A DNA stretch of 64,000 nt, from contig CAWCFT010000004.1 in NCBI GenBank assembly GCA_963794945.1, forward strand, positions 96,001-160,000, written 5' to 3'. Positions 4,129 through 52,710 of this stretch are shown piece by piece (position 1 is the first letter of the stretch; every line of letters begins with the position of its first letter). This DNA comes from Endomicrobiales bacterium. Lineage in GTDB: Bacteria > Elusimicrobiota > Endomicrobiia > Endomicrobiales > CAWCFT01. A program made the translations under genes and the position numbers. The notes beneath the pieces were generated by a model that searched no databases, was not told the DNA's origin, and was given only the letters and a program-made list of their open reading frames with translations.

Positions 4129-4211
4129 AAAGATTTAAGATTTCAAAATTAAATATTCTTTGTTTATAGGCAGTTCAATTTTACAATTTTTAATCTTCTA
4201 ATTTTGAATTT
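4129..4211. repeat. Periodic palindromic intergenic element, AAGATTT/AAATCTT class
   Basis: AAAGATTT AAGATTT CAAAATT ... CAATTTTA CAATTTTT AATCTTCT AATTTTGA. Confidence 0.65.
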
Positions 4212-4215
4212 CGTT

Positions 4216-5749
4216 TCAGTCCCTCTGTATGGCATCCAAAGGCGTTATATTCCTCGCGACAATGACCGGATAGAAGGCCGCGACAATAGTCACGAATATG
4301 AGCTGGACTATCGTGAGCGCGATGTCCGGCAGCATCAGAACCGGGTGAAAAACATCTCCGCCGTACAGAAGCTGCACCATATCATTGGTTGTGGTTATCT
4401 TAAAAAGAGGGATCAGTTTCACTATTAGTATACCCGTGATTATACCGGCTCCTCCGAAAACAGCGGAAAGCACGGCTGTCTCTCCAAAGAACATGCCCCC
4501 GATAAAAGATTTCCTCGCCCCGACAGCCCTCATCATGCCTATCTCTGAAGTCCGTTCTAGAGCCGCCATGGTGAGCGTGTTTACTATTATTATTATCGCC
4601 ACGCAGAAGAGCAGCGTGACGAACATGAAAAGAGCTCCCTTTATAAGAAGCGTCATTGAGCCTATAGGCCCGGCGGCCTTGTTCCAGGAAACGGCTCTCA
4701 CGCCTGTATTCAGCCGCGGTTAAAGCCTTGTTGAGCATGCCGAGAGCATACGAGTAAGAAACACCGTTCTTTAGTTTGATGAACACAAGATTATAGACGC
4801 CGTCTTCTATGCCCAAATCTTTGGTTTGTCCGGACTGCGGCTTCTGCTTCAGCTCAACAGCTTTGTTGTGCGCGTTCGGGACGATTATCTGTTCAGAGCC
4901 GAACATAGAATCTATGTCGCCCGAACCCATGTTGAGTAGTTTCTGCTCCTCTTTAGGCACTTCCACCGCCTGGTCTCCCGCTGAAAAATATCCAAGGCAA
5001 TTGCGGTAGGATTCGATATCGGTTACGCAGAAATGCCCGAATATCGAATTAAGCGCGTTGTATTTGACAATTCCTTTCACTCCGAACCTGATGTCCGTAG
5101 ATGTGTTGGAACCGCTGGAGAGGCCCATCATAACTATGCTTGTGGAAACTACAAGGCTCTGCATGTTCTCAGATGCCTCTTTTGTCAGGTTCTCTTTGAC
5201 GATCTTTCCGCCTTCCGGAATAACCCAAATGTCCATTGCCGTGTATATGTGCTCGTTGCGGATGTGAGTCGGGACGAGTATGCTGTTCTTTTCAGCCGGG
5301 TTTAACAGGCGGCCTTCAATGGGTTTCATATTGTCCGGGAACATTTTCTGGTACTGGTTAAAATCAACGCCCATCAGGTAAGCGAAGCTGGGCGAATTCT
5401 CGTCTTCTTTAAGTATCATGACAGTGTTCTCGCCCGCCGGCAGAAAACGATCTATATAGCCCTGTGATTTCAGGACTTCTTTTATTTCCTTGTATGTGGT
5501 CACGGGTTCGATGGAGGTCCCCATCATATTGAAGAAAATATTGTCGGACTTCTGTTTGTCCGATATCAACACAATATCGCCCATGAACGTGTTAACCACG
5601 TTCTTGCGGATACCGGCGTCCATGCCCGTGATGACACCGTTGCCAAGCGTCATGAGCAGGGCGCCTATAAAAAGTATGACGCCTATAACAAGGCTCTTTC
5701 CTTTGTGGCGCAATATGTTGCGCCAGGCTATCTTAAGCAGAAGATTCAT
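4216..5749 (-). CDS. FtsX/LolE-like ABC permease (one frame break near 4710)
   Basis: ORF 4400-5749 (IAWRNILRHKGK) joins ORF 4216-4701 (ERTSEIGMMRAVGA). Confidence 0.85.
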
Positions 5750-5770
5750 TATTTTTCCTGATGGTTTAGC

Positions 5771-6463
5771 TTATTGGACTGACGCAGCCGGCTGCTCTAT
5801 CAGTCCGTCCTTTATTTTCGTAATATTGTTAGCATACTTCAACACGTTAGCGTCATGGGTGGAAAATATAAAGGTAGTTTTTTCTATCTTGTTCATTTCT
5901 TTCATGAGCTCGAGTATCTGGCCCCCGGTAACTGAATCGAGGTTCGCCGTTGGCTCGTCCGCGAGAACGATATCCGGGTTGGTAACGAGAGCTCTGGCTA
6001 TGGCAACGCGCTGGCGCTGGCCTCCCGAAAGCTCGGCTGGGCGGTGCTTTGCGAATTCCTTAAGCCCCACTTCATCTATCAGCTTATCGGCTCGGCCGCG
6101 TATCTCCTTGGCAGAATGTTTCTTCATAAGAAGCAGCGGGAACTCAATGTTCTCAATAACGTCCAGAACAGGGATAAGGTTAAATGTCTGAAAAATGAAC
6201 CCGATCTTGTTAAGCCTGATATCCGTGATCTCTCTGTCGTTTAATGAAGTTATCTCTCTCCCACCAACCTGAACGCTTCCCCTTGTAGCGAAGTCTATGC
6301 ATCCGATAACATTCAAAAGGGTTGTTTTGCCACTGCCGGATGGCCCCACGATGCTCATGAAATCGCCTTCTTTAACTTTCAGGTCAACCCCGCGCAGGGC
6401 GTGCACAACAGTATTTCCCAGCGGGTACTCCTTGTACAGCTGCTTGATCTCAATAATATTCAC
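5771..6463 (-). CDS. ABC ATP-binding protein, LolD/MacB-like
   Basis: Walker A GPSGSGKT, LSGGQRQRVAIARAL, LADEPT, STHD. Confidence 0.95.
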   Translation of the reverse strand: MNIIEIKQLYKEYPLGNTVVHALRGVDLKVKEGDFMSIVGPSGSGKTTLLNVIGCIDFATRGSVQVGGREITSLNDREITDIRLNKIGFIFQTFNLIPVLDVIENIEFPLLLMKKHSAKEIRGRADKLIDEVGLKEFAKHRPAELSGGQRQRVAIARALVTNPDIVLADEPTANLDSVTGGQILELMKEMNKIEKTTFIFSTHDANVLKYANNITKIKDGLIEQPAASVQ

Positions 6464-6505
6464 ACTCTTGCTCCTATTCCTACTTGAACACCTGAAATAT
6501 GGTTA

Positions 6506-6534
6506 ATCTTACCATTTTAATATATGTATTTCAA
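6506..6534 (-). promoter_or_regulatory. Sigma70-type promoter for the ABC operon
   Basis: Minus strand TTGAAA-17 nt-TAAGAT with TG extension. Confidence 0.55.
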
Positions 6535-6568
6535 TTGAGCCTGAGAAAACCAAAAGCCATGTGAATTC

Positions 6569-6597
6569 TTGAAATCGCAATATAGATTAAGTATAAT
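6569..6597 (+). promoter_or_regulatory. Sigma70-type promoter
   Basis: TTGAAA-17 nt-TATAAT, then GGGGAGG RBS before ATG 6632. Confidence 0.7.
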
Positions 6598-6631
6598 TAC
6601 TGGCCGTTATATCTTAAAAGGGGAGGATTAC

Positions 6632-7058
6632 ATGAAAAAGTTAGCAGCCATTGTCACAGTTCTTATCGCAGTATCCGCAGCAGCTTTTGCAGCAGAACGC
6701 CACTCCAGTCAAGCTGTCATTGTTCCCAAAGATCGCCGTACCGGAATCGCAAACTGTCCACGGCCTTGACCTCGGGATCATCGCAACAAAGGTTGACGAA
6801 GTGCAGGGTGTACAGCTCGCCTGGATATACTGCGGAACAAGGAATAAGTTTGTAGGTTTTCAAAGTGCGTTCATAGCCATAGACAAAGATGCAACCGGTC
6901 TTACATACGGCTTCGTGAACGAAGCTGAGAGCTTCACCGGAGTCCAGCTCGGCTTTGTCAATATAGCTGATAAAATGAAGGGTGTTCAGCTTGGCCTTGT
7001 GAATATAATCAAAACAGGCCCTGTACCTGCGATGGTCTTCATAAACGCTAACTTCTAA
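6632..7058 (+). CDS. Secreted GVQLG-repeat (LA_2272-like) protein (frame break near 6700)
   Basis: Signal peptide MKKLAAIVTVLIAVSAAAFA joins a frame with repeated GVQLGxVN and C-terminal NANF. Confidence 0.75.
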
Positions 7059-7070
7059 ATACTAAAACTT

Positions 7071-7114
7071 AAATAAAAAAGCCCCCGGTATTCTTACCGT
7101 GGGCTTTCTTATTT
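7071..7114. terminator. Bidirectional intrinsic terminator
   Basis: AAATAAAAAAGCCCCCGGTA-TTCT-TACCGTGGGCTTTCTTATTT between convergent genes. Confidence 0.8.
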
Positions 7115-7147
7115 GTATTTACATGCTTTTGCTCAGCAATGCAGCGG

Positions 7148-12595: not shown

Positions 12596-12606
12596 TTTTT
12601 TAGGTG

Positions 12607-12668
12607 TAAGCTATAAGTTATAAGAAAAACTTCTCGATTTTTCGCCTTTTCTTACAGCTTATAGCTTA
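12607..12668. repeat. Periodic palindromic intergenic element, TAAGCTA class
   Basis: TAAGCTA TAAGTTA TAAGAAAA ... TTTTCTTA CAGCTTA TAGCTTA (20/22 complementary); includes the tyrA stop. Confidence 0.85.
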
Positions 12669-13547
12669 AGGCTTATTTTCGAGCAGTTTTTGGCGGGCGG
12701 CTTTTGCTTTCTCGAACTTCTTCTCAAGCTCACCAGGTTTATTTAAAAGATTTTTCGCGTCCTTGAGCTCTGCAATGAATAGGTCGATCGCCTCTGAAAC
12801 ATCTTTCTTGTTTGCATTACAGATTGACGCCCAATCTGACGAATTTGAGCCCGCTATTCTTGTTAGGTCCTTAAACGACCCCGCAGCAAGATTAGGCGCT
12901 GCCGGGACAAACTTCTGGAGCTGTTCCGCCAGAAGGCAGAGCCCGAAGGCCATTATATGCGGCAAATGGCTAATAAGCGCCACAGCCCTGTCATGCTCTT
13001 CTGCCGGCATCTCAACTATATTGGCGCCAGCTCTTTTCCACATCGTCTTTATTTCACCAAAGGCTTTCTTGTTTACGCCTTTTTCTTTTACAAGGACCAC
13101 GGCGGCGCCCTCATATAAACCGGCCCTTGCCGCGCTGATACCGGACTTCTCCGAACCCGCCATCGGGTGAGCGCCGATAAAGACAACGGATTTGAGATTT
13201 GAGATTTGAGATAACGACAAAACCTTATTTACTTGTTTTAATACCGAGCCTTTTACGCTGCCTGCGTCTGTGATCACAGCTCCGTGCTTTATAAAGGGCA
13301 ATATCTTCTTGACCATTGGCGCGATCAAGTGAACCGGTGTGCATATAACTATTATATCAGCGTCTTTAACACCTTCTTTGAGGTCTGTCGTAAAAATATC
13401 TGACGCGCCCATCTTCTTTGCTGTTTTTAGTTTATCGATATTACGGCCAACCGCGGTGACAAAATATTTACTCTTCGCTTTTTTCCTCAGAGCGAGCCCC
13501 AGCGATCCGCCTATCAGCCCAGTGCCTATGATAGATATTTTTTTCAT
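12666..13547 (-). CDS. tyrA: Prephenate dehydrogenase
   Basis: GTGLIGGS, DAGSVK, HPMAGSE, HD..SHLPH. Confidence 0.95.
   Translation of the reverse strand: MKKISIIGTGLIGGSLGLALRKKAKSKYFVTAVGRNIDKLKTAKKMGASDIFTTDLKEGVKDADIIVICTPVHLIAPMVKKILPFIKHGAVITDAGSVKGSVLKQVNKVLSLSQISNLKSVVFIGAHPMAGSEKSGISAARAGLYEGAAVVLVKEKGVNKKAFGEIKTMWKRAGANIVEMPAEEHDRAVALISHLPHIMAFGLCLLAEQLQKFVPAAPNLAAGSFKDLTRIAGSNSSDWASICNANKKDVSEAIDLFIAELKDAKNLLNKPGELEKKFEKAKAARQKLLENKP
13190..13212. repeat. (ATTTGAG)3 heptamer triplet in frame inside tyrA
   Basis: Three perfect 7-mers = 21 nt within the SQISNLKS codons. Confidence 0.8.
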
Positions 13548-15749: not shown

Positions 15750-16816
15750 TTAATCGGCTTTCGGGTACGAGCCGAGTATCTTAAGGAACATGCAGTTCTT
15801 CTCAAGTTGTTCTAGAGCCTGTTGAACGCCCTTATCCGACACGTGCCCCAAGAAATCTACGAAGAAAATATATTCCCACGCTTTTTTCTTGGTCGGGCGC
15901 GACTCTATCTTTGTCAGATTGATGCGGTGCCCCTTAAATGACATCAGCATATCATGCAAGGCTCCGACCTTATCCTTTATTGAGAACATGATCGATGTTT
16001 TGTCCTCGCCTGACGCTTCCGAAGGCGTCTTGCCTATGACAAGAAAGCGCGTAAAATTCTCTTTCGAGTCTTCTATGCCGCTTACCACTATATCCAGGCT
16101 GTAAAGTGCTGCGCAGCCCTAGAACCTATAGCCGCGGCGCCTTTTTCCGTAGCGGCGCGTTTAGACGCGGCCGCTGTGGAGGACACTTCTACCACGGGAA
16201 CACCCGGCAGGTTCTCTTCAAGCCAGTTCCTGCACTGGGCAAGCGGCTGGTAGTGCGAGTATACTTTCTTTATGTCCTTTTTATTGCCGGTTTTAGAAAG
16301 AAGGCATTCCTCTATCTGCATATTGATTTCGGAGCAGATGACTAGGTCCGATTCGAAGAACATGTCGAGTGTGTGGTTTACAACGCCTTCGGTGGAATTC
16401 TCTATGGGAACTACGCCGTAACCGGCGCGGCCCTTCTCCACTTCAGTGAAAACATCTGCTATCGATTTAACCGGGACGTAATCGCCTGAAGAGCCGAAAT
16501 TCTTCATGGCCGCGAGGTGAGTAAAGGTTCCCGCGGGCCCAAAATAAGCAACCTTGAGCTTTGACTCCAAGCTCCTGCAGGCGTTTATTATCTCTCTGTA
16601 TATGGCGTCAACGGATTCCGGGCCCAGAGGGCCCTTACAGCGTTTTACTAGCCCGGATATTATCTGCTTTTCCCTGTGCGGTATATAAAAATTCCTGAGC
16701 CCGGACTTGATCTTGATCTTTCCAACTTCCACAACTAGCTTCGCCCTCGAGTTTAAAAGTTCTAATGTTTTCGAATCAATTTCATCGATTTTTTTACGTA
16801 GGCTTTCGATTTCCAT
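15750..16816 (-). CDS. pheA: Chorismate mutase / prephenate dehydratase (frame break near 16105)
   Basis: LRKKIDEID, GPAGTF, PIENSTEG; second ORF has TRF and LTKIESRP. Confidence 0.93.
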
Positions 16817-17522: not shown

Positions 17523-17603
17523 GTTTCTAGTTATGAGTTTTGAGTTTCAGGCAAAGGCAATACTAGATTTAGGTGTTAACTCGGGACTCAAAACCCGAAA
17601 CTA
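17523..17603. repeat. Periodic palindromic intergenic element, TGAGTTT/AAACTCA class
   Basis: TAGTTA TGAGTTT TGAGTTT ... AACTC GGGACTC AAAACCC GAAACTA. Confidence 0.7.
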
Positions 17604-17611
17604 TATTTATA

Positions 17612-18739: not shown

Positions 18740-19815
18740 CTACTTAAGTTTCTGCGGCCGCCAGTATGTGTACGCCGGCCTGTTAAAATCTATCGGCCCG
18801 GATTTTTCTTCGGGCGTGTTTTTTTCTCCCATGGTTTTCTTCGGCTGTTTGCGCACCGGAAAGCCGGTGGCTATGACCGTTATCTTTATTCTGTCGTCGA
18901 GGTTCGGGTCTATAACCTGCCCGTAGAACATGTGGGCCTCAGGTGACACCGATTCCTTGATCAACGTCATGGCTTCCCTAACTTCCATCATTGAAGTGGA
19001 CCTGTTGCCGGTTATATTGACCAGTACGCCTTTGGCGCCGTCAATAGAGATGTCGTCTAATAGCGGGCTCGAAATTGAGCGCCTGGCGGCGTCTATGGCA
19101 CGGGTGGGCCCCGAGCTTTCGCCGATACCCATGAGCGCTTCTCCTGCGCCCTGCATGATAGTCCTGACATCGGCGAAGTCAACGTTAATTTCGCCCGGCG
19201 TCGTTATGACATCCGATATTGCCTGTACCGCCTGGCGAAGGACGTCGTCTACTATCCTGAAAGCATCCTCTATGGGTGTCTTGTCATCAACTATAGTGAA
19301 CAGTTTTTCGTTCGGTATAACTATAAGCGTGTCGGTGAAGTTACGCAGGTTCTTTATTCCCTCTTCCGCCTGCAGGAGCCTTATCCTGTGCTCGAACTCA
19401 AAGGGCTTCGTTACAACGCCGACAGTGAGAATACCAAGCGACCTCGCCACCGATGCGATTATAGGAGCGGCTCCCGTGCCTGTGCCACCGCCCATGCCAG
19501 CGGTGATGAATACCATGTCGGTTCCCTGGAGCATCTCCTTTATTCTTTCGCGGCTTCTTCCGCAGCCTGTTGTCCGATGGTAGGGTTTCCGCCGACCCCG
19601 AGGCCCCGTGATATCTGTTCGCCTATCTGGATCCTTACCGGAGCGACAGAGCGCCTCAGCGCCTGCACGTCGGTGTTGATGGTTACGAACTCTATACCAT
19701 GGATGCCGGCCGCGATCATGCGGTTGACGGCGTTCGAACCGCCGCCGCCGACCCCCACAACTTTTAGTACAGCCGGATGTTCGGCATGTTCGTCCGCGAT
19801 TTTTATCCTGATCAT
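18740..19815 (-). CDS. ftsZ: Cell division protein FtsZ (frame break near 19550)
   Basis: [14 protein letters not shown] in 19540-19815; GMGGGTGTG and NVDFADV in 18740-19534. Confidence 0.96.
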
Positions 19816-19825
19816 GTTTTACCTC

Positions 19826-19923
19826 TATAAGCTTTAAGCTATAAGCTCTAAGCCGTAAGAATAGACCTCAAAATCAAACGTTACTTTATGCCTTTTCTTA
19901 CAGCTTACCGCTTACAACTTATA
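19826..19923. repeat. Periodic palindromic intergenic element, TAAGCTA class
   Basis: TAAGCTT TAAGCTA TAAGCTC TAAGCCG TAAGAA ... TTCTTA CAGCTTA CCGCTTA CAACTTA. Confidence 0.85.
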
Positions 19924-19931: not shown

Positions 19932-21168
19932 TTAAAAAGATTGATCGAACCAGTCCTTCATTTTCTTCATAATGCCAGTGCCTTTCGCCGGCCGCTGGGA
20001 AGTAAAACCGGGTGAATTTTGAATATTCGAACGCAACAGCGCGATCGCCGTGGAATACGTCGTGTTGCCTATGATCTCCTCTGGCCCCGAAGCTATATCC
20101 TGCGGGAGCCCGATCCTGGTAGATGAATTAAGGGCCTGCTCTGTCGCCTGCATGATCCCACCAAGCCGCGCTCCACCGCCCGTAATCACCACGCCACCGG
20201 CGACTATAGCGTCTGCTAGGTTGGACTTTTTTATCTCTTCGTCTATTGTAACGAACACCTGGTCAAGGCGCGGCTGAATTATTTCGATAAGCTGCTTGCG
20301 TGTGGACTCGCGTATCGTGCTGCCGTCAACCGCCATGAAATCGAATTTGCTGTCCTCTTTGAGAAGGCTGCCCATCGCCATGCCGTATTTTTCCTTGATG
20401 TCCTGGGCCACGGCCAGCGATGTCCTCAACGAGTGCGATATGTCGCGTGTTATAAAATCCGAGCCTACCTGCAGTTCTTTCGAATATCTTATACTACCTT
20501 CCGTGTAGATGGCGAGGCCTGTAGTAAGCCCGCCAAAATCGATAAGCAGGCAGCCGAGCTCTTTTTCTTCCTGCGTTATTACTAGATCCCCCACAGACAA
20601 GAGCCCGTAGACCGGCTCGACAACCTCAAAACCCGCCTGGGCTATCGCCTTGTAAATATTGGACAAATGGCTCGATGACCCCGTAAGTATGTGCACGTCA
20701 ACTTCCAGAAAATTGCCTTCCATCCCCACCGGGTTCGGCACGCCGCGCTGGTGATTGAGCGAAAACTCCTGCGGGATACTGTGCAGGATCTCTCGGTCGG
20801 GAGAAAGCCTTATGGTCTTCGCGTTCTCAATGGCGCCGGAGACATCTTCAGCGGTGATCTCTTTATCGGTGCGGGATATGTTGATCGCGCCGCGCGCGTT
20901 CATGGATTCTATGTGGTTGCCGCGGAGCCCCAGGTATATCTGGCGAACCGTTTCCCTAGCCTGCTCTTCCGCCTGCTCAATAACTTTCTGCACAGCGTAA
21001 GAAGTTTCAGAAAGGTTGATTACGACCCCGCCTTTAACTCCCCTGCACGGCAGTTTTCGCGCCGCTCAGTACCTCGAGGGTTCCCGTTTCTTCCGACAGA
21101 CGGCCTATGGCACAGCATATCTGACTGCTCCCGATGTCAAGCCCAGCAATGATCTCCGATTTCGCCAT
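19932..21168 (-). CDS. ftsA: Cell division protein FtsA (frame break near 21055)
   Basis: MAKSEIIAGLDIGSSQIC read manually from 21168; GVKGGVVIN, NPVGMEG, IDFGGLTT, VITGGGA. Confidence 0.94.
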
Positions 21169-21191
21169 TTTTACCTCGCATTTAAAACATT

Positions 21192-21300
21192 TCAAACATC
21201 AAATATTAAATGTCAAAATTTCGGTGTCCGCTTCCAGCGAACATGTTAAATAAGTCACCGAAGGTGACACATTAATTTTGATTATTGATATTTGATTTTA
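21192..21300. repeat. Periodic palindromic intergenic element, CAAATAT class with inner hairpins
   Basis: CAAACAT CAAATAT TAAATGT CAAAATT ... AATTTTG ATTATTG ATATTTG; inner GTCACC-GAA-GGTGAC. Confidence 0.85.
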
Positions 21301-21319
21301 AAATTTCATTAATATGAAC

Positions 21320-22140
21320 TTATGAACTTGCCTTTTTTGGTTTTACCAGTATCCTTCCGTTCTCAAAATAACAGAGGTTTACGTACTCAACGGCTTTGAA
21401 CCTTTCTCCCGCATCGAATAGAACCTGGTTAAGCTTTTTTAATTTCCGACTTATCGTCCCTTCGTCAGAACCGCCCCAGTATATTTTCATCCCGTCATCG
21501 AGGTCGAAAGCGACGTCACTGACAGGCTCCGGGTAGAACCTTACTATTTTCGGATAAATATCCTTCGCTTTGATTGCAAATATTTTTATGAAATCCAGAA
21601 CTTCCTTGCGTCCGGCATCATCTTTTGAAACTATCTCCGGCAGAAATATTCTCGCGTACATACCCCTTAAAGGGGAACGGCTTATTTTCGTAGTCAACAC
21701 CGAGACGTTCACCGTCTATTTTTGTAAAAGCGACCGGTACACGCTCTTCAAACTTTATAATGACACCCTTCCATGTGCGGCTTACCCAAAGCCTTTTGAG
21801 CTCCGGCTTACACTGGCGCAGGTTCTCCTCGGCGGCCAGACACAGGAGCCAAAAATAGATTATCCCTTTCACGGAACGGGAGCAAAGCAGAGATCTCGCT
21901 AGCCGATATATTCTTAGCGCCTCGGATCTCGATGGTCTTTATTTTAAAACAATCCGAGCAGAACAAGAAATTGCTTATGACCCTGTATCCGAACAGCACC
22001 CCGAAAACCACGGCGCACGCAATCGCCACGAACTGGCCAACCTTATAAGCTTTCTGCCTCCGCTCATATTTGAACTTGTAGCGGAGAACGACGTTCCTTC
22101 TGCGGTAAGTGGCGGGTTTCCTGCCGCGTCTTTTTCTCAT
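21320..22140 (-). CDS. ftsQ: Cell division protein FtsQ/DivIB (frame breaks near 21855 and 21670)
   Basis: Basic N-terminus, TM helix, POTRA (FKIKTIEIRGAKNIS..DNLF..EERVPVA), position between ddl and ftsA. Confidence 0.8.
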
Positions 22141-23100: not shown

Positions 23101-23147
23101 TCAAAAATCAAAACAATAATTTTAATCTTTGATTCTTGATATTTGAA
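23101..23147. repeat. Short periodic palindromic element, CAAAAAT/CAAATAT class
   Basis: TCAAAAATCAAAA ... TTTGATTCTTGATATTTGA. Confidence 0.7.
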
Positions 23148-23152
23148 ATATC

Positions 23153-33214: not shown

Positions 33215-33225
33215 ATATTATTAGA

Positions 33226-33310
33226 GATAAGGGATAAGTGGTAAGGGGTAAGTAAAGTCAAAACCGTGACCGTGTGCTGTTCACTTAACACTTATCCCTT
33301 ACCCCTTATC
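33226..33310. repeat. Periodic palindromic intergenic element, TAAGGGA class
   Basis: GA TAAGGGA TAAGTGG TAAGGGG TAAGT ... ACTTA ACACTTA TCCCTTA CCCCTTA TC. Confidence 0.85.
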
Positions 33311-33322
33311 ACTGGTTTGGTT

Positions 33323-34554
33323 TTAGTACAGTGGAAACTTCTTGCAAAGCGCAAGGACTTCGTTATGTATATTCTTAAGTTCAGCTTCGTTGCCGGAATT
33401 TTTGAAGGCCCGGACTATACAATCGGCTACTTTCTCGATATCAGCTTCTTTAAGGCCGCGGGTTGTAACTGCGGGTGTGCCTATCCTTATGCCTGATGCT
33501 ATTGAAGGCTTCTCCGGGTCGTAAGGTATGGCGTTCTTGTTTACGGTTATGCCGACTTTTTCAAGTATTTCCTGGGCGTCTTTGCCTTTTACTCCAAGAG
33601 GACGAAGGTCAACAAGGAACATGTGGCAGTCCGTTCCACCGGACACAATTTTCAAGCCGCCTTTTTCAAGAGCAGCGGCGAACGCTTTCGCGTTCTTCAT
33701 TACCTGCTGCTGGTACATTTTGAAACCCGGCTGTAAAGCCTCGCCGAACGCCACGGCCTTTGCGGCTATTACGTGCATAAGCGGCCCACCCTGTGTTCCC
33801 GGGAAAACTGCCTTGTCTACCTGCCCGCGTATTTTTCGGCGCACATTATCATGCCGCCGCGCGGCCCTCGAAGGGTCTTATGAGTTGTGGTTGTAGTTAC
33901 ATCCGCGTATTTTATAGGCGAAGGATAAAGCCCGGCCGCAATAAGGCCCGCGTAGTGAGCGACGTCAGCCATGACCAGCGCGCCGACTTTGTCGGCTATG
34001 TTCCTTATCCTCTCCCACTCCCAAACTCTCGAGTAGGCGCTGGCGCCTGTTACTATCATCTTGGGCTTGTGCTCGAGCGCGAGGCGTTCCATCTGGTCGT
34101 AATCTATAACACCCGTGTCCTCTTTAACTGTATAGGGAATGACCTTGTAATTTTTGCCCGAGAAATTCGCGGGACTGCCGTGCGAAAGATGGCCGCCGTG
34201 GGCGAGGCTCATGCCCATTATGGTGTCGCCGACATTTATGAACGCGACAAACGCCGCGATGTTTGCCTGCGCGCCCGAGTGGGGCTGGACGTTTACGTGC
34301 TCCGCGCCAAAGAGTTTCTTGGCCCTGTCGCGCGCGATGTTTTCAGCGATGTCAACAAACTCGCAGCCGCCGTAGTAGCGTTTGCCGGGATACCCTTCCG
34401 CGTATTTGTTCGTGAGGCACGACCCCTGCGCTTCCATTACCGCAAGCGACGTGTGGTTCTCAGAAGCGATAAGCTCCAGCGTATTCTTCTCGCGCTCAAG
34501 CTCTTTCTGGATAACTCCATATATTTCCGGGTCATTCTTTTGCAGAATACTCAT
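33323..34554 (-). CDS. glyA: Serine hydroxymethyltransferase (frame break near 33830)
   Basis: [48 protein letters not shown] 34554 after AGGAG. Confidence 0.96.
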
Positions 34555-34582
34555 TGTTTCGTCTCCTTTATGTAACACTATT

Positions 34583-34704
34583 TCAAATATCAAACATCAA
34601 ATATCAAAAGTGCATCTCAAAATCCAAAATTTTACAACCTGTTTATCGAATTTATTTTTGAATTACTATTTGCCATTTTGATTTTTAATGTTTGATTTTT
34701 GATA
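34583..34704. repeat. Periodic palindromic intergenic element, CAAATAT class
   Basis: CAAATAT CAAACAT CAAATAT CAAAAGT ... ATTTTG ATTTTTA ATGTTTG ATTTTTG ATAT. Confidence 0.85.
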
Positions 34705-35334
34705 TTAACAAATGCACTTTAAGATGTCTTTTTTGCTGATACACCCTTCCCTTATAACGGTTCCGTGAAAATGTGTCACATCGACTACGGTTGATTCTTT
34801 GCCCAGGCCGCACTTGCCGCAATCGATTATAAGGTCAACCTTCCCCTTCATGTACTTTAAGGCCTCGTCTCCGCTCTTGGCGCTTGGCTTTCCCGAAGGA
34901 TTGACGCTCGTTGTCATTATCGGGAAACCGCAGTGTTTGAGGAGCCCAAGGACTATCTTCGAATCCGGTATCCTAACACCTATATCCGACCTGCCGCCCG
35001 AAACCATCTTTCCCAGCTCGGTTGTGGAAAGAACTACAGTCAGCGGGCCCGGCCAGAACTTTTTTATAAGCTTCCCCGATGGTTCCGGTATGTGCGCCAG
35101 GCTCTTTAGCGAATCAATATCCGGGGGCATGAGTATGAGCGGTTTACGAAAACTGCGCCCCTTGATCGAATAAATCTTTTTCTGCGCTTCCGCCGAAAAT
35201 ACTCCCGCCGCAAGCCCGTAAACCGTGTCCGTGGGTATTACTACGACACCGCCGGATTTTAGTACTTCTGCCGCAAGTTTAAGCTTACTGATATCAGGCC
35301 TATTTTTTTCGAGCTTAAGAATTACTGTTTTCAT
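34705..35334 (-). CDS. tsaC: L-threonylcarbamoyladenylate synthase (Sua5/TsaC)
   Basis: PTDTVYGL, KGR, FWPGPLT, TSVNPSG, STVVD. Confidence 0.93.
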   Translation of the reverse strand: MKTVILKLEKNRPDISKLKLAAEVLKSGGVVVIPTDTVYGLAAGVFSAEAQKKIYSIKGRSFRKPLILMPPDIDSLKSLAHIPEPSGKLIKKFWPGPLTVVLSTTELGKMVSGGRSDIGVRIPDSKIVLGLLKHCGFPIMTTSVNPSGKPSAKSGDEALKYMKGKVDLIIDCGKCGLGKESTVVDVTHFHGTVIREGCISKKDILKCIC

Positions 35335-35343
35335 AGTAATATT

Positions 35344-35428
35344 TCAAAAATCAAATATCAAAAATCAAATATATAACCGGCATTTTTTGATTTATTGAAG
35401 TATATTTGACATTTGATTCTTGATATTT
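35344..35428. repeat. Periodic palindromic intergenic element, CAAATAT class
   Basis: CAAAAAT CAAATAT CAAAAAT CAAATAT ... ATATTTG ACATTTG ATTCTTG ATATTT. Confidence 0.88.
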
Positions 35429-38389: not shown

Positions 38390-38399
38390 AGTTTGTCAA

Positions 38400-38497
38400 T
38401 CAAATATTAAATATCAAAAATCAAAATTTAGGTGTTCGCTTCCGCGAATTAATTAAATAAATCACAGAGCCAAACATTATTTTTGATTTTTGATTTT
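38400..38497. repeat. Periodic palindromic intergenic element, CAAATAT class, core related to 21192-21300
   Basis: CAAATAT TAAATAT CAAAAAT CAAAATT TAGGTGTTCGCTTCCGCGAA..TTAAATAA..ACATTA TTTTTG ATTTTTG. Confidence 0.85.
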
Positions 38498-38506
38498 ATA
38501 TTTTTT

Positions 38507-43920: not shown

Positions 43921-44728
43921 GATCACCGGAATTTTTGGTTTCCCGGTCAAGCACTCGCTTTCACCAGCGATGCATAACGCCGCTTACGCGCGTATGGGGC
44001 TTGATTACGCCTATGTGCCTTTCGAAGTGGCCCCAAAAGAACTCAAAAACGCAGTGTACTCGTTAAGAGCCCTTGGGATAGCCGGCGTCAACGTTACCAT
44101 CCCGCACAAAGAAAACGTCATGCCATTTCTTGATTCTTTCGGCCCCCTTGTCAAACAGATCGGAAGCGTGAACACTATTATAAATTCAAATGGAAAACTG
44201 ATAGGTTATAACACCGACGCCCCTGGTTTTTTAAAAGATCTGCGTGAAAAGGGTTTTAACCCGTCCGGCAAGAATGTGCTCCTGTTCGGAGCCGGCGGAG
44301 CCGGTAAAGCCGTTGCCGCGGCACTGTCAAATGCAGGCGCGAAAAGCATATATATCACTGACAGCGCCGAACAAAAAGCCCGCGGCCTTTCAAAAAAGAC
44401 ACCCCGGGCTGTTTTTCTGCCTTTTAGCGGATGGCAGGAGAAGATATGCGACACCGCGCTCCTTGTAAACGCAACTCCGCTGGGAATGCACCCCGGCAAG
44501 CCGCCGGTTACGGCAAACAGCCTCAAGAAAGGCATATTCGTATACGACCTTGTCTATAACCGTGCCACAGAACTTAGCCGGGAATGCCGGAAAGCCCGCG
44601 TTAAATACTCGAACGGGCTGGGTATGCTCCTATACCAGGGCGTCATCGCCTTCGAACACTTCACTGGCAGAAAAGCGCCCGTTGAAGATATGAGGAAAGC
44701 CCTCACAAAACAAATTAAGAAAATTTAG
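43898..44728 (+). CDS. aroE: Shikimate dehydrogenase
   Basis: HSLSP.MHN, NVTIPHK, VNT, NTD..G, GAGGA, DLVY, MLLYQG. Confidence 0.96.
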   Translation: MTINGTTKITGIFGFPVKHSLSPAMHNAAYARMGLDYAYVPFEVAPKELKNAVYSLRALGIAGVNVTIPHKENVMPFLDSFGPLVKQIGSVNTIINSNGKLIGYNTDAPGFLKDLREKGFNPSGKNVLLFGAGGAGKAVAAALSNAGAKSIYITDSAEQKARGLSKKTPRAVFLPFSGWQEKICDTALLVNATPLGMHPGKPPVTANSLKKGIFVYDLVYNRATELSRECRKARVKYSNGLGMLLYQGVIAFEHFTGRKAPVEDMRKALTKQIKKI

Positions 44729-44794
44729 AAGATTGAAAATTTTAAAATAAAAACCTTAAATCTTAAAATCTTCAAAATCTTAAATCTTCAATTG
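44714..44794. repeat. Periodic palindromic element, AAGATTT/AAATCTT class; contains the aroE stop
   Basis: AAATTTAG AAGATTGA AAATTTTA ... AAATCTTA AAATCTTC AAAATCTT AAATCTTC. Confidence 0.75.
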
Positions 44795-46509: not shown

Positions 46510-47001
46510 TGCTGACAGGACTCGGTTACGACGTCCACAGATTGAAAAAAGGGCGCCCGCTCATTATTGGCGGAGTGAAAATACATCACACTAAAGGGCT
46601 GGAAGGCCACAGCGACGCTGATGTTCTTGTACACGCGGTCATGGACGCTCTGCTGGGGGCGGCGGGGCTTGACGACATCGGCCATCTTTTCCCTAACACC
46701 GACCCCAAATACAAGGGCGCCGACAGCATTACGCTGCTAAAATCCGTGGTAAAAAAGCTTTCAGTTAAAAAACTTTTTGTTAACAATATCGACACAACAC
46801 TGATCTGTGAGGCTCCGAAGATATCGCCGCACATAAAAAAGATGAAGGCCGTTCTTTCAGCGGCGCTTAAACTCCCGGCGAGACGGATAGGAATAAAGGC
46901 GACGACAAACGAAGGGCTGGGATTTATCGGGCGCGGCGAAGGACATAGCGGCTTTTTCAGTGTGCACACTGAAAAAGCAAGCTCAAAGCACGAAACTTTA
47001 A
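46509..47001 (+). CDS. ispF: MEcPP synthase (frame break near 46943)
   Basis: [35 protein letters not shown]; corrected frame IAAFSVCTL ends 47001. Confidence 0.94.
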
Positions 47002-47103
47002 ATCCGAAACAAAAAGCAATTTTAAGACAACAATAAATATTTTTGCATTAGGATTTTGGATTTGTAGTTTGTTTAGGATTTCGAACTTAGAATTTAGGAT
47101 TTG
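46977..47103. repeat. Periodic palindromic element, CGAAAyy/ATTTAGG class
   Basis: CAAAGCA CGAAACT TTAAATC CGAAACA ... TGTTTAGG ATTTCGA ACTTAGA ATTTAGG ATTTG. Confidence 0.8.
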
Positions 47104-47109
47104 ACATTT

Positions 47110-48518
47110 ATGACTATACAAATTTCTAACACCCTTACCGCAAAAAAAGAGCCCTTCATCCCGTTAAAAGAAGGTATCGTAACAATGTACGTCTGCGGCG
47201 TTACGCCGTACGATGAGGTGCACCTGGGCCACGCCCGGGCGTACGTGACTTTTGATATCATCAAAAGGCACCTGGAACACTCCGGATACGGCGTAAAATT
47301 CATACAGAATTTCACCGATGTGGACGACAAGATAATCAAGCGGGCCGCCGAAAAAGGCACAACGCCTGCCGCGCTTGCAGAAACCTTCATTAAAGACTAT
47401 TTCAGTCAGATGGACAAGTTGAATGTCAAGCGCGCGGACGATTATCCAAGGGTCACTAAGTCCATACCTCAGATAATCTCGTTCATTGAGACACTTGTCA
47501 AGAACGGCTCAGCCTATGCGGTCAAAAACGGCGACGTATATTTTTCGGTCCAGAAGTTCCCGGGCTACGGCAAGCTGTCGAAAAGGAAACCGGAAGACCT
47601 TAAGGCCGGCATACGCGTCGAGATAGGTGAAGAAAAGAAAGACCCGCTCGATTTCGCGTTATGGAAAGCCACCAAAGAAGATGAGCCGGCAGAAGTCAGC
47701 TGGCAGAGCCCCTGGGGCAAAGGCAGGCCGGGCTGGCATATAGAATGTTCGGTCATGGCAACAAACGCCTTGGGGCGCCTATCGACATCCACGGCGGCGG
47801 ACAGGACCTGATTTTCCCCCACCATGAGAACGAGATAGCCCAAGTTGAGGCCGCCACCGGCAAACCTTTCGCAAAATACTGGATACACAACGGTTTTGTC
47901 ACTATAAACAAAGAGAAAATGTCGAAATCTCTGGGTAATTTCTTTGCCTCCGCGAGATCTTCGAAAAATATTCACCAAGAGTGGTGCGTTACTTCCTTTT
48001 ATCGCGCCATTACAAAAGCGCCCTCGATTTTTCGGATGAAGGGCTCAAGCCCGCAAAGAACGCGCTCGAAGGCATAGACGAAGTTTTACATAAGCTTTCG
48101 CTTGTTCCTTACACGCCGCAAATGCCCGGCCACCTGCGCAGCCTCGACCCTGAAATGGACGAGGCCGTAATTGCCGAGTTCAACGAGGCCATGAATGACG
48201 ATTTCAACACCGAGAAGGCGCTCGCCGTGATCCACAACCTTAAAAGGGAAGCGGCCACGGCAATCTCGCAGAAAAGCCCTGGAACCCTGTATAAATATTT
48301 CAACACGTTAAAGACACTCCTTTCTGATAGCCTTGGCATCCCAGCTGCCCTTCAGGCCGAGATACCCGCTGAAGCCCTTGAACTAAAAACCCAGCGTGAA
48401 GCCGCAAGGCGCAACAAAGACTGGAAAAAGTTCTGACGAATTAAGGGCAAAACTCAGCGCCCTTAAGTATAAAATAGAAGACAACCCAGACGGAACATCA
48501 ACTTTATTACCGCTTTAA
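47110..48518 (+). CDS. cysS: Cysteine-tRNA ligase (frame breaks near 47775, 47950, 48432)
   Basis: [49 protein letters not shown]. Confidence 0.95.
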
Positions 48519-48528: not shown

Positions 48529-48590
48529 AGATTAGAAAATTTAAGATTCAAGATTTAAAGATGTCAATTTTCAATTTTTAATCTTCAATT
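48529..48590. repeat. Periodic palindromic element, AAGATTT class
   Basis: AGATTAGAAAATTT AAGATTC AAGATTT AAAGAT ... CAATTTT CAATTTTT AATCTT CAATT. Confidence 0.7.
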
Positions 48591-48599: not shown

Positions 48600-49340
48600 A
48601 TGAGTGAAATGATCACAGGCAGGAACCCGGTAAGAGAGTTATTGAAAGCCGGCACAAAGACCGTTAATAAAATACTTCTTTCGAGGCAGGCCAGGGGCGA
48701 GGCGATAACCGAGATAATAGCTCTCGCTAAAGAAACGGGCATCCCCATGCACCACGTGCCGCCCGAGAAGTTCGACAAGGTTTGCCCCGAGAACAGCCAG
48801 GGCGTCGCCGCGGAAGTCTGCGATTTTGAGTACCTCGAGTTCGCGGAACTGTGGGACAAGGTCAAAGACAAGCCTAACCCCGTGCTGGTAGTTCTAGACG
48901 GCATAGAGGACCCGCACAACCTTGGCGCCATAATCCGCAACGCGGTAGTGTTCGGCGCGGACGGCATCATCATAGCCAAGTGGCGTTCGGCCGCGGTCAA
49001 CGATACCGTGGCGAGAACGTCGGCCGGAGCCATCGAGCACATACCGGTCGCAAGAGTAACCAACATACCTCAAACAATAAGCGACTTAAAAGGCCTGAAC
49101 GTCTGGGTTGTAGGCGCCGAAGGCGAGGGCGGCAAGTCGGTAAGAGAAGAGAAGTTCGCGTTCCCGATGGCTATAGTGATTGGAAGCGAGGGCGAAGGGC
49201 TTCATGAGCTTGTTAAAAAAAGATGCGACTACCTTGTCTCAATTCCGCAGACCAATAAAATTTCTTCAATGAATGCTTCCTGCGCGGCAGCGGTCATACT
49301 CTACGAAATATTCCTTCAGAAAAGTGCCAGGACAAAATAA
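48600..49340 (+). CDS. rlmB: 23S rRNA Gm2251 methyltransferase
   Basis: GRNPV.E, SQGV, LDGIEDPHNLGAIIR, GSEGEGL, SMNAS.A. Confidence 0.93.
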   Translation: MSEMITGRNPVRELLKAGTKTVNKILLSRQARGEAITEIIALAKETGIPMHHVPPEKFDKVCPENSQGVAAEVCDFEYLEFAELWDKVKDKPNPVLVVLDGIEDPHNLGAIIRNAVVFGADGIIIAKWRSAAVNDTVARTSAGAIEHIPVARVTNIPQTISDLKGLNVWVVGAEGEGGKSVREEKFAFPMAIVIGSEGEGLHELVKKRCDYLVSIPQTNKISSMNASCAAAVILYEIFLQKSARTK

Positions 49341-49349
49341 GCTTTAATA

Positions 49350-49400
49350 TAAATAATAAACCCCCTGAATAATCGAAATATTCAGGGGGTTTATTATTTA
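49350..49400. terminator. Bidirectional intrinsic terminator
   Basis: TAAATAATAAACCCCCTGAATA / TATTCAGGGGGTTTATTATTTA perfect stem between convergent genes. Confidence 0.88.
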
Positions 49401-49422
49401 CTTGAAATCATTTTCCAACAAC

Positions 49423-49850: not shown

Positions 49851-49860
49851 AGCCATTTTC

Positions 49861-49987: not shown

Positions 49988-50066
49988 AACGGTTTTTTAA
50001 ATTCAAAACTCTAACTATTGTCTCGGACGAGATATACTGTCCATTTTGGACATGTATGATACCGAA

Positions 50067-51335
50067 TCAGAACGTAGTATCAAATTTCATATCGCTCAAC
50101 CAGTCGGAACGCATCTGGTCCAGGCTTCTGCAAAATATCTTTTCGAAGGCATCGTTCAAATTAGACCCGTTATGCAGTTCATCAAGCATATTCTTTATAT
50201 TGATGTCCCATCCTTTGTCTATCAGATAGGCAACAAATATTTTGGAAAACGCATAAGCGAAGTTGACGTCTGCCTGAGAGGTAGTGGAATGGAACATCTT
50301 ATCTACTGCATCCATCGGAGGCACACCTCCAACCGCGAGCCGGTCTTTTACAGTCTTTTTCTCGCCATAGCTTATCTCGGCCTTATCGGGCATGTTCTCG
50401 TAGCACTGGGCCAGGCCTTCGTTGAGCCATGTCGGTATGTTATTTCCCACAACATAGCGTATATAAGCGTGCATGTATTCGTGATATACCAGCTGCCGAA
50501 GGCGCCTCTTGTCCCCTTCCGCGTCACATTTGCGCAGCCTTATCTTTCCATCATAGGCTCCGGCGAACCAATCAGGCTGTCCTAAAACAGTCTGAAATTC
50601 TTCCTGAGTGTAGATTATCACAGTCACCGGCTCATTGGGGAATGTACCGAGTTTCCAGCCAACGTTATTGTAAGCATCTTCGAGCATATCCAAGACTTCC
50701 TGCGACGCGCTCCACATTTCAAAACCTTCGTACCGTACTTTGAAGTGGTACCTGCCGGCATCGTGAAGCTTGCCGTTCGTTTCCATTTCCCTGTTAAGCT
50801 TATCGAGTTTCTGTTGTACAACTGTCTTTGACGGGTCAAGCGCCAGCGCCCTCTGCCACTGCTCCTGGGCGTTGGGATAATCGTCGTTGTCGTAATACGC
50901 CTGCCCCAGCAGGGAACGGGCCTCGGCAAGCGAATCGTTGTTTTCAATGGACTCTTTGAGCAGCGGTATTACTTCCTGGCCGTTATTTGCATTATACCGC
51001 CGGTAGGCTTCGTTTGTCAGTATGCCGGCAAGATTCTTTTTTATGGGGCCGGCCTGGGGATCCAGCTCTAGCGCTTTCTTGATGTAATGGTAAGCTGTGT
51101 CGAAATTGCCTTTGTTGTTGTAGTCCATCGCCGCGTTGTTGTAAGCTATAACAAGGTTATTTTTGATGTTAGCATCGTCAGGGGCCTCGGTGTGCGCCGC
51201 CGAAAGGTACTGTACCGCCTCATCGAACCTGCCGGCGTTCATAGCCGCAACCCCCTGGCTGTTATCTTCAACAGCCGAGCAATAAGCGGCTGATACGCAG
51301 AATAACAGCATGAACACCGCACTGATAATTTTCAT
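50067..51335 (-). CDS. Secreted TPR protein with peptidase MA-like metallopeptidase domain
   Basis: Signal peptide, multiple TPRs, GAYDGKIR, HEYMH, PTWLNEGLA. Confidence 0.85.
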   Translation of the reverse strand: MKIISAVFMLLFCVSAAYCSAVEDNSQGVAAMNAGRFDEAVQYLSAAHTEAPDDANIKNNLVIAYNNAAMDYNNKGNFDTAYHYIKKALELDPQAGPIKKNLAGILTNEAYRRYNANNGQEVIPLLKESIENNDSLAEARSLLGQAYYDNDDYPNAQEQWQRALALDPSKTVVQQKLDKLNREMETNGKLHDAGRYHFKVRYEGFEMWSASQEVLDMLEDAYNNVGWKLGTFPNEPVTVIIYTQEEFQTVLGQPDWFAGAYDGKIRLRKCDAEGDKRRLRQLVYHEYMHAYIRYVVGNNIPTWLNEGLAQCYENMPDKAEISYGEKKTVKDRLAVGGVPPMDAVDKMFHSTTSQADVNFAYAFSKIFVAYLIDKGWDINIKNMLDELHNGSNLNDAFEKIFCRSLDQMRSDWLSDMKFDTTF

Positions 51336-52003
51336 TGTTTTTGTTCTTTTGCCTTCTCTCGTTCAACCTTCTTTATGTCTTTCCATAAACTTTTAACCAG
51401 CAGGTGAACACAGTCCTCTTCGGCGTCCATAACATTGTCGCCCTCTTCGATGAACGAGCCTACCCAAACGATCTCGGCTGTCTCAACATCAATGATCTTA
51501 GCAACCAGGCCGATCTGGGGGTTGGTCGTTACCGTTACAGGATAGCGGCGTTTGTCAACCTTCGTTTTAGTGCCGGTTTGCTGGATCCTATTGTCGATTT
51601 TTTTGTAAACAGGAACAGAAAAATAGGTATCGTCCTCTTCCGTGTGAGTCTTGCTTTGCTTAGGCGAATAATACGTCACTTCGCCTACCAGCAGGCCGTC
51701 CACTCCAAGCAGCTGCCCCAGTTTCTTTGTTGTATCGGGGTCTTCAAGGCCTGATGCCGCGATCTTCTGTTCTTTCAGGACTCTATCAAGCTTGTTCCTC
51801 TCAACGGTTTTAAACCCCTTTTTGATAAGCTGCTGCGCGAAAATATCTTCTATACCGCTTATTTTCTTGGGGTTGTCAAATTTTGATATCCCGATATTCT
51901 TGAGGTTATTAAAATTATAGGTATGGCTTACGACAGTACGCGGCGTCGCGCAGCCTGAAAGAACTGCCGCAAAGAGTAAAGCCATTAAAAGTTTAAACGA
52001 CAT
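51332..52003 (-). CDS. CsgG/HfaB-like lipoprotein
   Basis: Lipobox LSGC, VER..LD.VL.EQ, LGQLLGVD, IIDVETAEIVW. Confidence 0.8.
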   Translation of the reverse strand: MSFKLLMALLFAAVLSGCATPRTVVSHTYNFNNLKNIGISKFDNPKKISGIEDIFAQQLIKKGFKTVERNKLDRVLKEQKIAASGLEDPDTTKKLGQLLGVDGLLVGEVTYYSPKQSKTHTEEDDTYFSVPVYKKIDNRIQQTGTKTKVDKRRYPVTVTTNPQIGLVAKIIDVETAEIVWVGSFIEEGDNVMDAEEDCVHLLVKSLWKDIKKVEREKAKEQKQ

Positions 52004-52027
52004 TTTAATTACCTCCCCAGTGATTTA

Positions 52028-52534
52028 TTATTTTATTTTATCAAAAAGAGAAAACGCGAAAAACATTTCGCCTATCAGCATCACGCTGAAACTAAGTTTG
52101 AACAGCCTGAACTTGTCGTTCGCTATCCCTGCGTTGACAACTATCTGCCTGCACAGGTTCTCGTGATACCCATTGCCCCTTATCTTGCACTCCATCGACT
52201 TTTCCATGATATCAATATAGCCGTCAACGCTGTATTTCACAATGTCTCCGTAATAAAGCGTGTTATCGCTCTCCCCAGGCTTTGCGCTCACGCGGTTTAT
52301 GTGGTACAGCCAGGCTGTCAGCCGCGATTTTGGCAGGAACGACACTACGCACAGAAACACCGACGCACCCAGGAACACAAAGCTCGCTTCGAACCATAGA
52401 TTATAATGAACATTAATGAACCTCACGGCTGTCAGCTGAAGCCCGAGAAAGGTAAGGATATTTATATTTTTGCCTTCCGCGTACCGCACGAGTGAATCTA
52501 TAGTGTCAAATATTTTCCATAAAGCTTGTTCCAT
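52028..52534 (-). CDS. Pycsar-type (DUF5706-like) three-TM effector homologue
   Basis: LVRYAEGK, two TMs ending LP, N.LYYGDI, QI..NA.IA..KF, final TM. Confidence 0.7.
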   Translation of the reverse strand: MEQALWKIFDTIDSLVRYAEGKNINILTFLGLQLTAVRFINVHYNLWFEASFVFLGASVFLCVVSFLPKSRLTAWLYHINRVSAKPGESDNTLYYGDIVKYSVDGYIDIMEKSMECKIRGNGYHENLCRQIVVNAGIANDKFRLFKLSFSVMLIGEMFFAFSLFDKIK

Positions 52535-52560
52535 CTAAAACCTCCCAAATAATATCAGAG

Positions 52561-52710
52561 AAATATCAAATATCAAATGTCAAAATTAAGGTTAACAGCT
52601 TGAATAATACAACCTTCCGCTTAAAAATAATTTCTACTTTATTACTTTGTTATTGAATCTATCTCTAAATTTTGATTTGTCATTTTGATTTTTGATTCTT
52701 GATATTTGAT
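52561..52710. repeat. Periodic palindromic intergenic element, CAAATAT class
   Basis: AAATAT CAAATAT CAAATGT CAAAATT ... CATTTTG ATTTTTG ATTCTTG ATATTTG. Confidence 0.85.

Follow-up and report, generated by a model that had tools for sequence, protein, structure and literature searches.

Why are the spacers of housekeeping operons in an Endomicrobiales bacterium filled, one after another, by palindromes whose arms are built from tandem heptamers? The question is raised by a stretch of 64,000 nucleotides, called the window here (G000:C4:96001-160000), where G000 is the source genome, an assembly of 2.9 Mb in 19 contigs that is 86% complete, and C1, C2 and so on are its contigs. An initial annotation of the window listed 14 spacers and one half copy as sharing a single architecture, and direct reading together with an inverted-repeat search shows that each of the 14 has two to five tandem units of about 7 nt, an intervening stretch and then the same units in reverse complement, so that little of the spacer is left over. 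As to what they are, the reading favoured here, at a probability of about 0.55, is that the spacers hold gene-less copies of a cassette in which a TIGR02436 four-helix-bundle gene stands between such arms, that is, non-autonomous derivatives which would become RNase III-cut hairpins once transcribed. The elements are best filed as a gene-less variant of the intervening-sequence-type four-helix-bundle cassettes, and G000 unites TIGR02436/S23p genes, the intervening-sequence design and spacer heptamers in one unusually expanded system, where a handful of gene-bearing copies share their arm classes with some 140 gene-less ones in the spacers of housekeeping operons. Annotators are thereby warned against taking such spacers, which are repeat elements, for promoters or terminators.

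A genome-wide family of heptamer-armed palindromes

At a strict threshold, the genome-wide search returned 165 arrays of period 7, 2 of period 8 and 5 of period 9, and among periods 7-12 it is period 7 alone that stands out. At the working threshold, 417 period-7 arrays were found in the 2.9 Mb, compared with 98 in 200-nt block shuffles of the genome. An inverted partner within 200 nt accompanied 226/417 arrays, whereas a control with partners reversed without complementing, over the same distance (at most 200 nt), gave 10/417. Periodicity and symmetry, which the initial annotation had taken as the conserved properties of the elements, both rise above their controls. Merging of the pairs yielded 146 elements of 50-200 nt, about 140 of them without an open reading frame (ORF). 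The heptamer-armed palindrome family is genuine, with some 146 copies in six main classes: 57 elements carry the unit TCAAAWA, 27 AAGATTN, 26 TAAGCTN, 12 ATTACAG, 10 TAAGGGN and 7 AAAGTTC, next to a single TGAGTTT element and 6 of other units. This assignment agrees with the earlier statement that the unit sequence differs by class. A strict detector, requiring at least 11/14 self-matches at lag 7 and an inverted partner scoring at least 10, recovered 8 of the 14 window copies listed earlier and missed 6 (4129, 17523, 21192, 23101, 44714 and 46977), which are shorter or more degenerate.

Resemblance between elements extends beyond the arms. Window 52558-52710 and C1:325982-326134 are full-length paralogues, 88.7% identical over 150/153 nt with the loop included, and for 31/146 elements a partner aligns over 80% or more of the length at no less than 80% identity. 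Judged by such alignments, whole gene-less elements, arms and loop together, recur at unrelated loci, and it is this dispersal that suggests the elements may be mobile. It is very improbable that the arrays are a mere by-product of slippage in A/T-rich spacers, with no common descent or function. Many units are A/T-rich, the loose threshold does pick up its 98 arrays in shuffled sequence, and the weakest window copies (46977, 4129 and 44714) lie near the folding background; against these points stand the isolation of period 7, the high rate of inverted partners, the loop families common to several loci and the full-length paralogues. Furthermore, the arm units of the relatives compared here, which are the 30 nearest genomes and belong only to the same order (G003, G008 and G014 among them; TsaC 45-60% identical), are highly diverse and in part G+C-rich (CCGGAGT, AGGTACC).

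Gene-bearing cassettes and their relatives

G000 holds five TIGR02436 four-helix-bundle genes, and four of the five lie between inverted heptamer arms, at C6:34448-34942 (unit TAAGCTN), C5:~91200-91640 (AAGATTN), C4:217184-217685 (ATTACAG) and C8:20274-20791 (TCAAAWA). The four largest gene-less classes are exactly the four with a gene-bearing copy, one each; none was found in G000 for TAAGGGN, AAAGTTC, TGAGTTT or the other units. Compared with the C8 full copy, the gene-less element at C1:14657-14768 yields two aligned blocks, 20265-20323 (48/59) and 20657-20715 (49/59), and the stretch left out between them, 20324-20656, is the ORF. Two further gene-less copies show the same two-block alignment, and five loops, including that of window 34579-34706, open with the inner flank, outside the repeats, of the C8 full copy. 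By alignment, at least one gene-less copy corresponds to a full copy minus its ORF. The initial annotation had offered, among other ideas, that the elements might derive from a heptamer-flanked cassette for a small gene and be its empty copies, and this idea is supported by the armed genes, by their units, which match the classes, and by the ORF-skipping alignments. Between the arms of the 14 window copies no TIGR02436 or PF05635 gene was found, and the window copies are for that reason filed as gene-less derivatives rather than full members.

The fifth TIGR02436 gene, at C2:164449-164760, has no heptamer arms; its flanks carry another short inverted motif around CTCAGATTT / TCTCAAATTGAGA. The sole GxxExxY (TIGR04256) gene of the genome, at C1:343733-344074, has inverted arrays of 9-nt period, GATTACnnn / nnnGTAATC, in the roughly 100 nt on either side; the design is that of the cassettes, with a different small gene and a different period.

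The design is not confined to G000. A one-genome-per-species scan, with a profile from a 6-sequence alignment (a 30-sequence alignment being too diverse), returned 594 relatives of the four-helix-bundle gene, and the closest relatives of one of the G000 genes were in metagenome-assembled genomes of Omnitrophota. Flanks were examined for the best 80 of the 594 loci, from many phyla, of which 76 were usable; inverted flanks were present at 66/76 (control 3/76) and at least one period-7 flank at 65/76. The arrangement of a gene between inverted heptamer arms recurs in many phyla. The gene was co-oriented with its co-directional neighbours in 36/43 clear loci (p = 9e-6), a count that leaves out 58 loci with unclear flanks and 8 with differing flanks. 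Within the order, TIGR02436 genes occur in 16/31 genomes (G000 included), at 0-10 copies each, and among 40 four-helix-bundle loci about 20 have both arms, 8 one arm and 12 none under strict detection.

Arm units follow the gene, not the host genome. Over 18 cassettes, the more alike two proteins are, the more alike are their units (Mantel rho 0.22, p = 0.033), with a unit similarity of 0.475 below 40% identity and 0.635 at 50% or more; this similarity is equal within and between genomes (0.488 vs 0.488). Units are identical or almost so in cassettes of different families whose proteins are 61-79% identical. In one such case, the protein of the C6 full copy is 79% identical in amino acids to one of G003 (L021, G003:C11:114160-115383) that has the same TAAGCNN arms; since TsaC of the two genomes is only 59% identical, horizontal transfer or strong constraint of the cassette is suggested.

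A tentative alternative can be put forward, in which the arrays are putative recognition sites, on either DNA or RNA, of the four-helix-bundle proteins, each with its own core of about five bases every 7 nt. In that case a resident protein would act in trans on the gene-less copies, at more than 100 junctions, and the hairpin would be secondary. The presence of one resident gene for each of the four largest gene-less classes speaks for it, as do units that track the protein rather than the genome of residence and that persist across families. However, a gene and its arms moving as one unit would yield the same association between protein and unit, two classes have no resident gene, and the relation of gene number to array density is only suggestive. 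In a small sample of 60 kb per genome (less for three) from 21 relatives, in which low-GC genomes gave control matches, 13 net inverted arrays were found in 577 kb of genomes with at least 3 four-helix-bundle genes, compared with 2 in 357 kb of genomes with none (Spearman 0.36, p = 0.10); G000 has 216 in 2904 kb. It is a more doubtful step that each protein lineage recognises its own core, that the more than 100 gene-less copies are its targets, and that the system marks, cuts or insulates transcripts (or DNA) at gene junctions. If a recognition system of this kind is true, one function would cover the TIGR02436/S23p family, the rRNA intervening sequences and bacterial heptamer repeats.

The spacers themselves turn over. 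Throughout the taxonomic order, argJ, tsaC and glyA keep the arrangement argJ-tsaC-glyA, and the argJ/tsaC spacer holds a heptamer palindrome in G000 (TCAAAWA), G008 (GTGTAAT), G003 (AGCGTnT) and G014 (TAAGCTC); in most other relatives it is short, mostly 7-67 nt with three longer, and contains no heptamer element. Because this spacer holds different units or nothing across the order, orthologous spacers are not invariant; the comparison, which the initial annotation had named as informative, thus comes out with four genomes and four units and a mostly empty spacer elsewhere, at deep divergence only. At the neighbouring junction, five relatives of the same order (loci L001, L002, L005, L006 and L008) contain an extra gene of ~450-700 nt between tsaC and glyA, which G000 does not have; its N-terminal motif resembles that of a low-molecular-weight phosphatase.

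The closest known system is the intervening sequence in the 23S rRNA of Coxiella burnetii, an insertion of 428 nt with an S23p ORF and a 28-bp terminal stem that is cut by RNase III in vitro; 2-3 tandem GACAGAT heptamers lie upstream of the S23p ORF, at the 5' end, and their number differs between strains (PMC4990558). ORF-bearing 23S intervening sequences of Leptospira are cited within the same text (PMC4990558). As far as the available part of that account goes, the Coxiella sequence is like the full cassettes described here, with an S23p/TIGR02436 ORF between stem-forming terminal inverted repeats; its tandem heptamers are in the 5' arm, and heptamers building both arms are a feature of the present elements that is absent from the Coxiella description. 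Unlike the 23S intervening sequences, the elements here lie between protein-coding genes, are mostly ORF-less and come in several unit classes within one genome. The G000 assembly contains no 23S rRNA gene in which an rRNA-borne copy could be sought.

Other repeats share single traits with the family. Repetitive extragenic palindromes and bacterial interspersed mosaic elements (REP/BIME) are short, dispersed, imperfect palindromes in spacers, often within operons after stop codons, and are thought to act on mRNA; the palindromes here are similar, but their arms are tandem 7-nt arrays and they come with no REP-associated tyrosine transposase (RAYT). The short tandemly repeated repetitive (STRR) sequences of cyanobacteria are tandem 7-nt repeats in non-coding DNA, with no function known. 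Tandem heptamers are common to both; the unit sequences here are not among the STRR units known to us, and to our knowledge neither the inverted pairing of two arrays nor a link to a four-helix-bundle gene is part of the STRR description. Miniature inverted-repeat transposable elements (MITEs) are many dispersed, gene-less copies whose inverted ends, and in some cases the adjoining inner sequence, are those of a longer parent with a gene. The present elements have inverted ends of that sort but, unlike MITEs, a parent that encodes a four-helix-bundle protein in place of a transposase, no target-site duplication seen and no near-identical copies. The Avd accessory proteins of diversity-generating retroelements we take to belong to the same four-helix-bundle family, PF05635; no reverse transcriptase or template repeat was noticed beside the genes studied here, though no systematic search was made. 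We know of no function for TIGR02436/S23p proteins, ORF-bearing rRNA intervening sequences or bacterial spacer heptamer repeats. No published account was found of gene-less heptamer palindromes in operon spacers, with most subscription journals outside the search, nor of a general heptamer-armed four-helix-bundle cassette design, for which Coxiella, as far as its available description goes, is one case, in rRNA. New here are the size and composition of the gene-less population: its classes correspond one by one to those of the resident genes, an alignment skips the ORF, the unmirrored positions recur periodically, a loop module is common to several copies, and classes turn over at one orthologous junction.

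The only Y1 transposase met with is that of an IS200-like element with hairpin ends of its own, in keeping with the earlier statement that the palindromes are neither RAYT/REP nor classical STRR. PF01797 gave five matches, which are this IS200-like element in three identical copies and two weaker ones. The three copies (149-aa Y1 transposase, own GC hairpin ends) are at C11:109942-110593, C2:132520-132882 and C8:42970-43332. The C11 copy sits inside the loop of a TCAAAWA element, only 1/5 PF01797 matches being inside an element at all, and the C2 and C8 copies appear to lie in coding sequence. A RAYT/IS200 enzyme acting in trans was rejected as a candidate on these two grounds, the ends being those of the IS200-like element itself and one match in five being within an element.

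Predicted hairpins, operon junctions and the structure of the arms

How could gene-less copies behave inside an operon? On the preferred reading, they are likely non-autonomous derivatives, which would have spread from a gene-bearing parent, or been left behind by it, in the manner of miniature elements. Upon transcription of the operon, pairing of the arms would give an imperfect stem of ~25 bp, located a few bases past the stop codon of one gene and ahead of the start of the next, and RNase III would cut this stem and thereby separate the neighbouring cistrons. We infer such cleavage because the Coxiella 23S intervening sequence has its stem cut in vitro and an RNase III gene is present in G000.

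The placement of the elements was counted with crudely called genes (ORFs of at least 110 aa, chosen greedily) and only in spacers of at least 60 nt. Elements were found in 120/1050 co-directional, 11/131 convergent and 6/134 divergent spacers. Co-directional junctions are thus enriched over the rest (odds ratio 1.9, p = 0.018), divergent ones are depleted (p = 0.016), and convergent ones do not differ from co-directional ones (p = 0.38). The initial annotation had placed all elements between co-directional genes; gene names and context hold for the 14 window copies, but genome-wide 11 convergent and 6 divergent junctions are occupied, and since the enrichment is modest and convergent junctions are no different, the pattern is mostly the genome base rate together with avoidance of divergent spacers. 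Among 124 co-directional contexts, again with crude ORFs, the element contains or abuts the stop codon of the upstream gene in 30, and the distance to that codon is at most 10 nt in 76; the earliest start open to the downstream gene is no more than 30 nt from the element in 97/124.

Median arm length is 30 nt, and 122/158 arms have 4-5 units; the two arms overlap over ~25 nt with ~20 matches and enclose a median loop of 35 nt. Per unit, four phases are almost invariant and pair from arm to arm in 88-99% of cases, while the two most variable phases pair in 57% and 40% (72% and 47% if G-U is counted). Each unit thus combines some five conserved core bases with about two positions that vary freely and are unmirrored between the arms. 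The 14 window copies were folded as sense-strand RNA and compared with 200 dinucleotide shuffles each: nine lie at z <= -3.4 with 0/200 shuffles as stable, and one at z = -2.5. Genome-wide, the sense strand folds more stably than the antisense strand by 1.7 kcal/mol (69 vs 53 elements, p = 0.005). Taken together, the depletion of divergent junctions and the better sense-strand fold give weak support to a role at the RNA level.

These data bear on the possibility that the arrays are recognition sites. Near-invariant phases next to variable ones that are not mirrored are in its favour, and AAGATTN copies retain period and symmetry yet fold like shuffles. A hint may further be taken from the closest solved relatives of the proteins, 2gsc and 2rld, which were deposited with five chains each, next to the prevalence of arms with 4-5 units.

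Several points weigh against the preferred reading of gene-less derivatives cut as hairpins. Since the two variable positions pair so rarely, the stems carry periodic mismatches with no compensatory upkeep, and 4/14 window copies, all with A/T-only arms (4129, 44714, 48529 and 46977), fold like their shuffles; the unmirrored positions and the unstable folds favour recognition sites over a pure hairpin model. The folding edge of the sense strand could be explained by transcription-linked mutation bias. The classes TAAGGGN and AAAGTTC, with 10 and 7 copies, have no gene-bearing copy in the assembly, which is 86% complete. No identical or near-identical copies exist among the 146 elements, so nothing points to recent spread; no target-site duplication or flanking direct repeat was seen by eye at the window copies; and inspection of the PF01797 matches linked no transposase to the elements. 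Finally, the relation of full to empty copies fits deletion of the gene or its insertion into a hairpin alike.

A further explanation, which is unlikely, is that the elements are mRNA hairpins selected by the host as stabilisers, attenuators or terminators, much as REP/BIME are, and that the four-helix-bundle genes merely lodge in them. Tight placement just past stop codons agrees with it, and so do the similar frequencies at co-directional and convergent junctions with depletion at divergent ones, the slightly better folding of the sense strand, and a loop module that resembles two facing terminators. This module occurs in 17 TCAAAWA copies of G000, two of them in the window, at 21192 (21213-21281) and 38398 (38421-38458), and in one G003 element (L005:2631-2755) of a different family whose arms have another unit, AAATGnA. 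From the 5' arm it runs through a short G/T-rich lead-in, a GC-rich mini-hairpin and a T/A-rich linker to a second GC-rich mini-hairpin. Its first stem occurs as GTCGCC/GGCGAC, GTCCGCC/GGCGGAC, GTTCGCC/GGCGAAC, GTCACC/GGTGAC and GCCGCC/GGCGGC, that is, with two-sided changes preserving the pairing, and two GC-rich hairpins of at least 5 bp were found in 9/18 module copies compared with 78/900 shuffles. On the other side, independent hairpins would not be expected to match gene-bearing copies class for class in their arms, nor to align with them in two blocks; 4/14 copies are not stable hairpins, and most same-order relatives have no element at argJ/tsaC. Genuine terminators in the window also look different. 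The initial annotation had assigned ordinary terminator hairpins to three convergent junctions, and at two of them GC-rich hairpins with short GC stems are indeed present, at 7069-7115 and 49336-49414. Compared with intrinsic terminators, the arms of the elements are long, A/T-rich and mismatched, while the loops of the 17 G000 copies hold GC mini-hairpins next to a T/A-rich linker.

Two polarities of the arms were considered and set aside. Stop codons are strongly polarised in G000 (3' arm 68/79 vs 40.3 expected; 5' arm 34/79 vs 60.6 expected), but this is driven by few classes and is weak elsewhere, the counts for 52 cassettes from other genomes being 28 vs 19.1 expected and 31 vs 25.9 expected, and nothing was built on it. 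The purine-rich arm comes first in 84 G000 elements and second in 0, a further 62 being ambiguous, but the split is only 27 to 14 in the wide set. The system opens the binding of proteins to arrays, the mapping of RNase III cuts in the stems and the effects on flanking cistrons to experiment.

Individual copies in the window

Gene names and orientations in the window were confirmed by NCBIfam for aroA/tyrA, ftsA/ftsZ, ddl/murB, glyA/tsaC/argJ, rsmI, aroE, ispF/cysS and rlmB. The 14 paired copies have loops of 1-95 nt, none of which holds an ORF.

TCAAAWA is the commonest class in the window. Its copies at 34579..34706 between tsaC and glyA (z = -5.7) and 35341..35428 between argJ and tsaC (z = -4.4), as well as that at 52558..52710 with a loop of 93 nt (z = -3.4), were all recovered by the strict detector, as was the copy upstream of rsmI at 38398..38506 (z = -6.4), which has the double mini-hairpin loop. 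The other copy with a double GC mini-hairpin loop lies upstream of ftsA at 21192..21306 (z = -4.8), and a short one lies between murB and ddl at 23101..23152 (z = -3.6). A lone TCAAAWA-type array at 61101..61133 is a half copy, in which direct reading and the inverted-repeat scan showed no opposite arm.

Two TAAGCTN elements passed the strict detector, one between ftsA and ftsZ at 19824..19923, which has z = -7.2, and one between tyrA and aroA at 12602..12676 (z = -4.6), where the tyrA stop codon (12666-12668) falls within the 3' arm. The TAAGGGN element at 33220..33313, between glyA and a wecA/mraY-like gene, was likewise recovered strictly (z = -5.2). The single TGAGTTT element, at 17523..17605 between pilT and pgeF, has 2-3 units per arm and z = -2.5, and was missed by that detector.

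AAGATTN elements are located downstream of a lolC/E-like permease gene at 4129..4213 (z = -0.9; missed by the strict detector), downstream of aroE at 44714..44794 (z = -0.5) and between cysS and rlmB at 48535..48590 (z = +0.15; recovered by the strict detector); none of the three folds better than its shuffles. The 44714 copy has irregular units of 7/8 nt, an irregularity noted by eye only. The weakest of the 14 is the degenerate element between ispF and cysS at 46977..47100 (z = -1.2), with AAAnnnn / AGGATTT arms, the 5' arm overlapping the end of the ispF ORF.

In the window, pheA, ftsZ, glyA and cysS each appear as two adjoining ORFs in different frames (window 15750-16816, 18740-19815, 33323-34593 and 47101-48436), which reflects either indel errors of the assembly or frameshifted genes. 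Because the split genes may reflect indel errors, some of the irregular 7/8-nt unit lengths could be artefacts. A small share of one DNA sequencing run gave only short contigs, part identical to the window and most less than 90% alike, which were uninformative on the spacers. Rfam, over the window, returned a tRNA as its sole match above the gathering score and no family for the elements, and a permissive Rfam scan of window 21150-21330 gave chance-level matches only. A tRNA gene occupies window 63941-64000, where it is cut by the window end.

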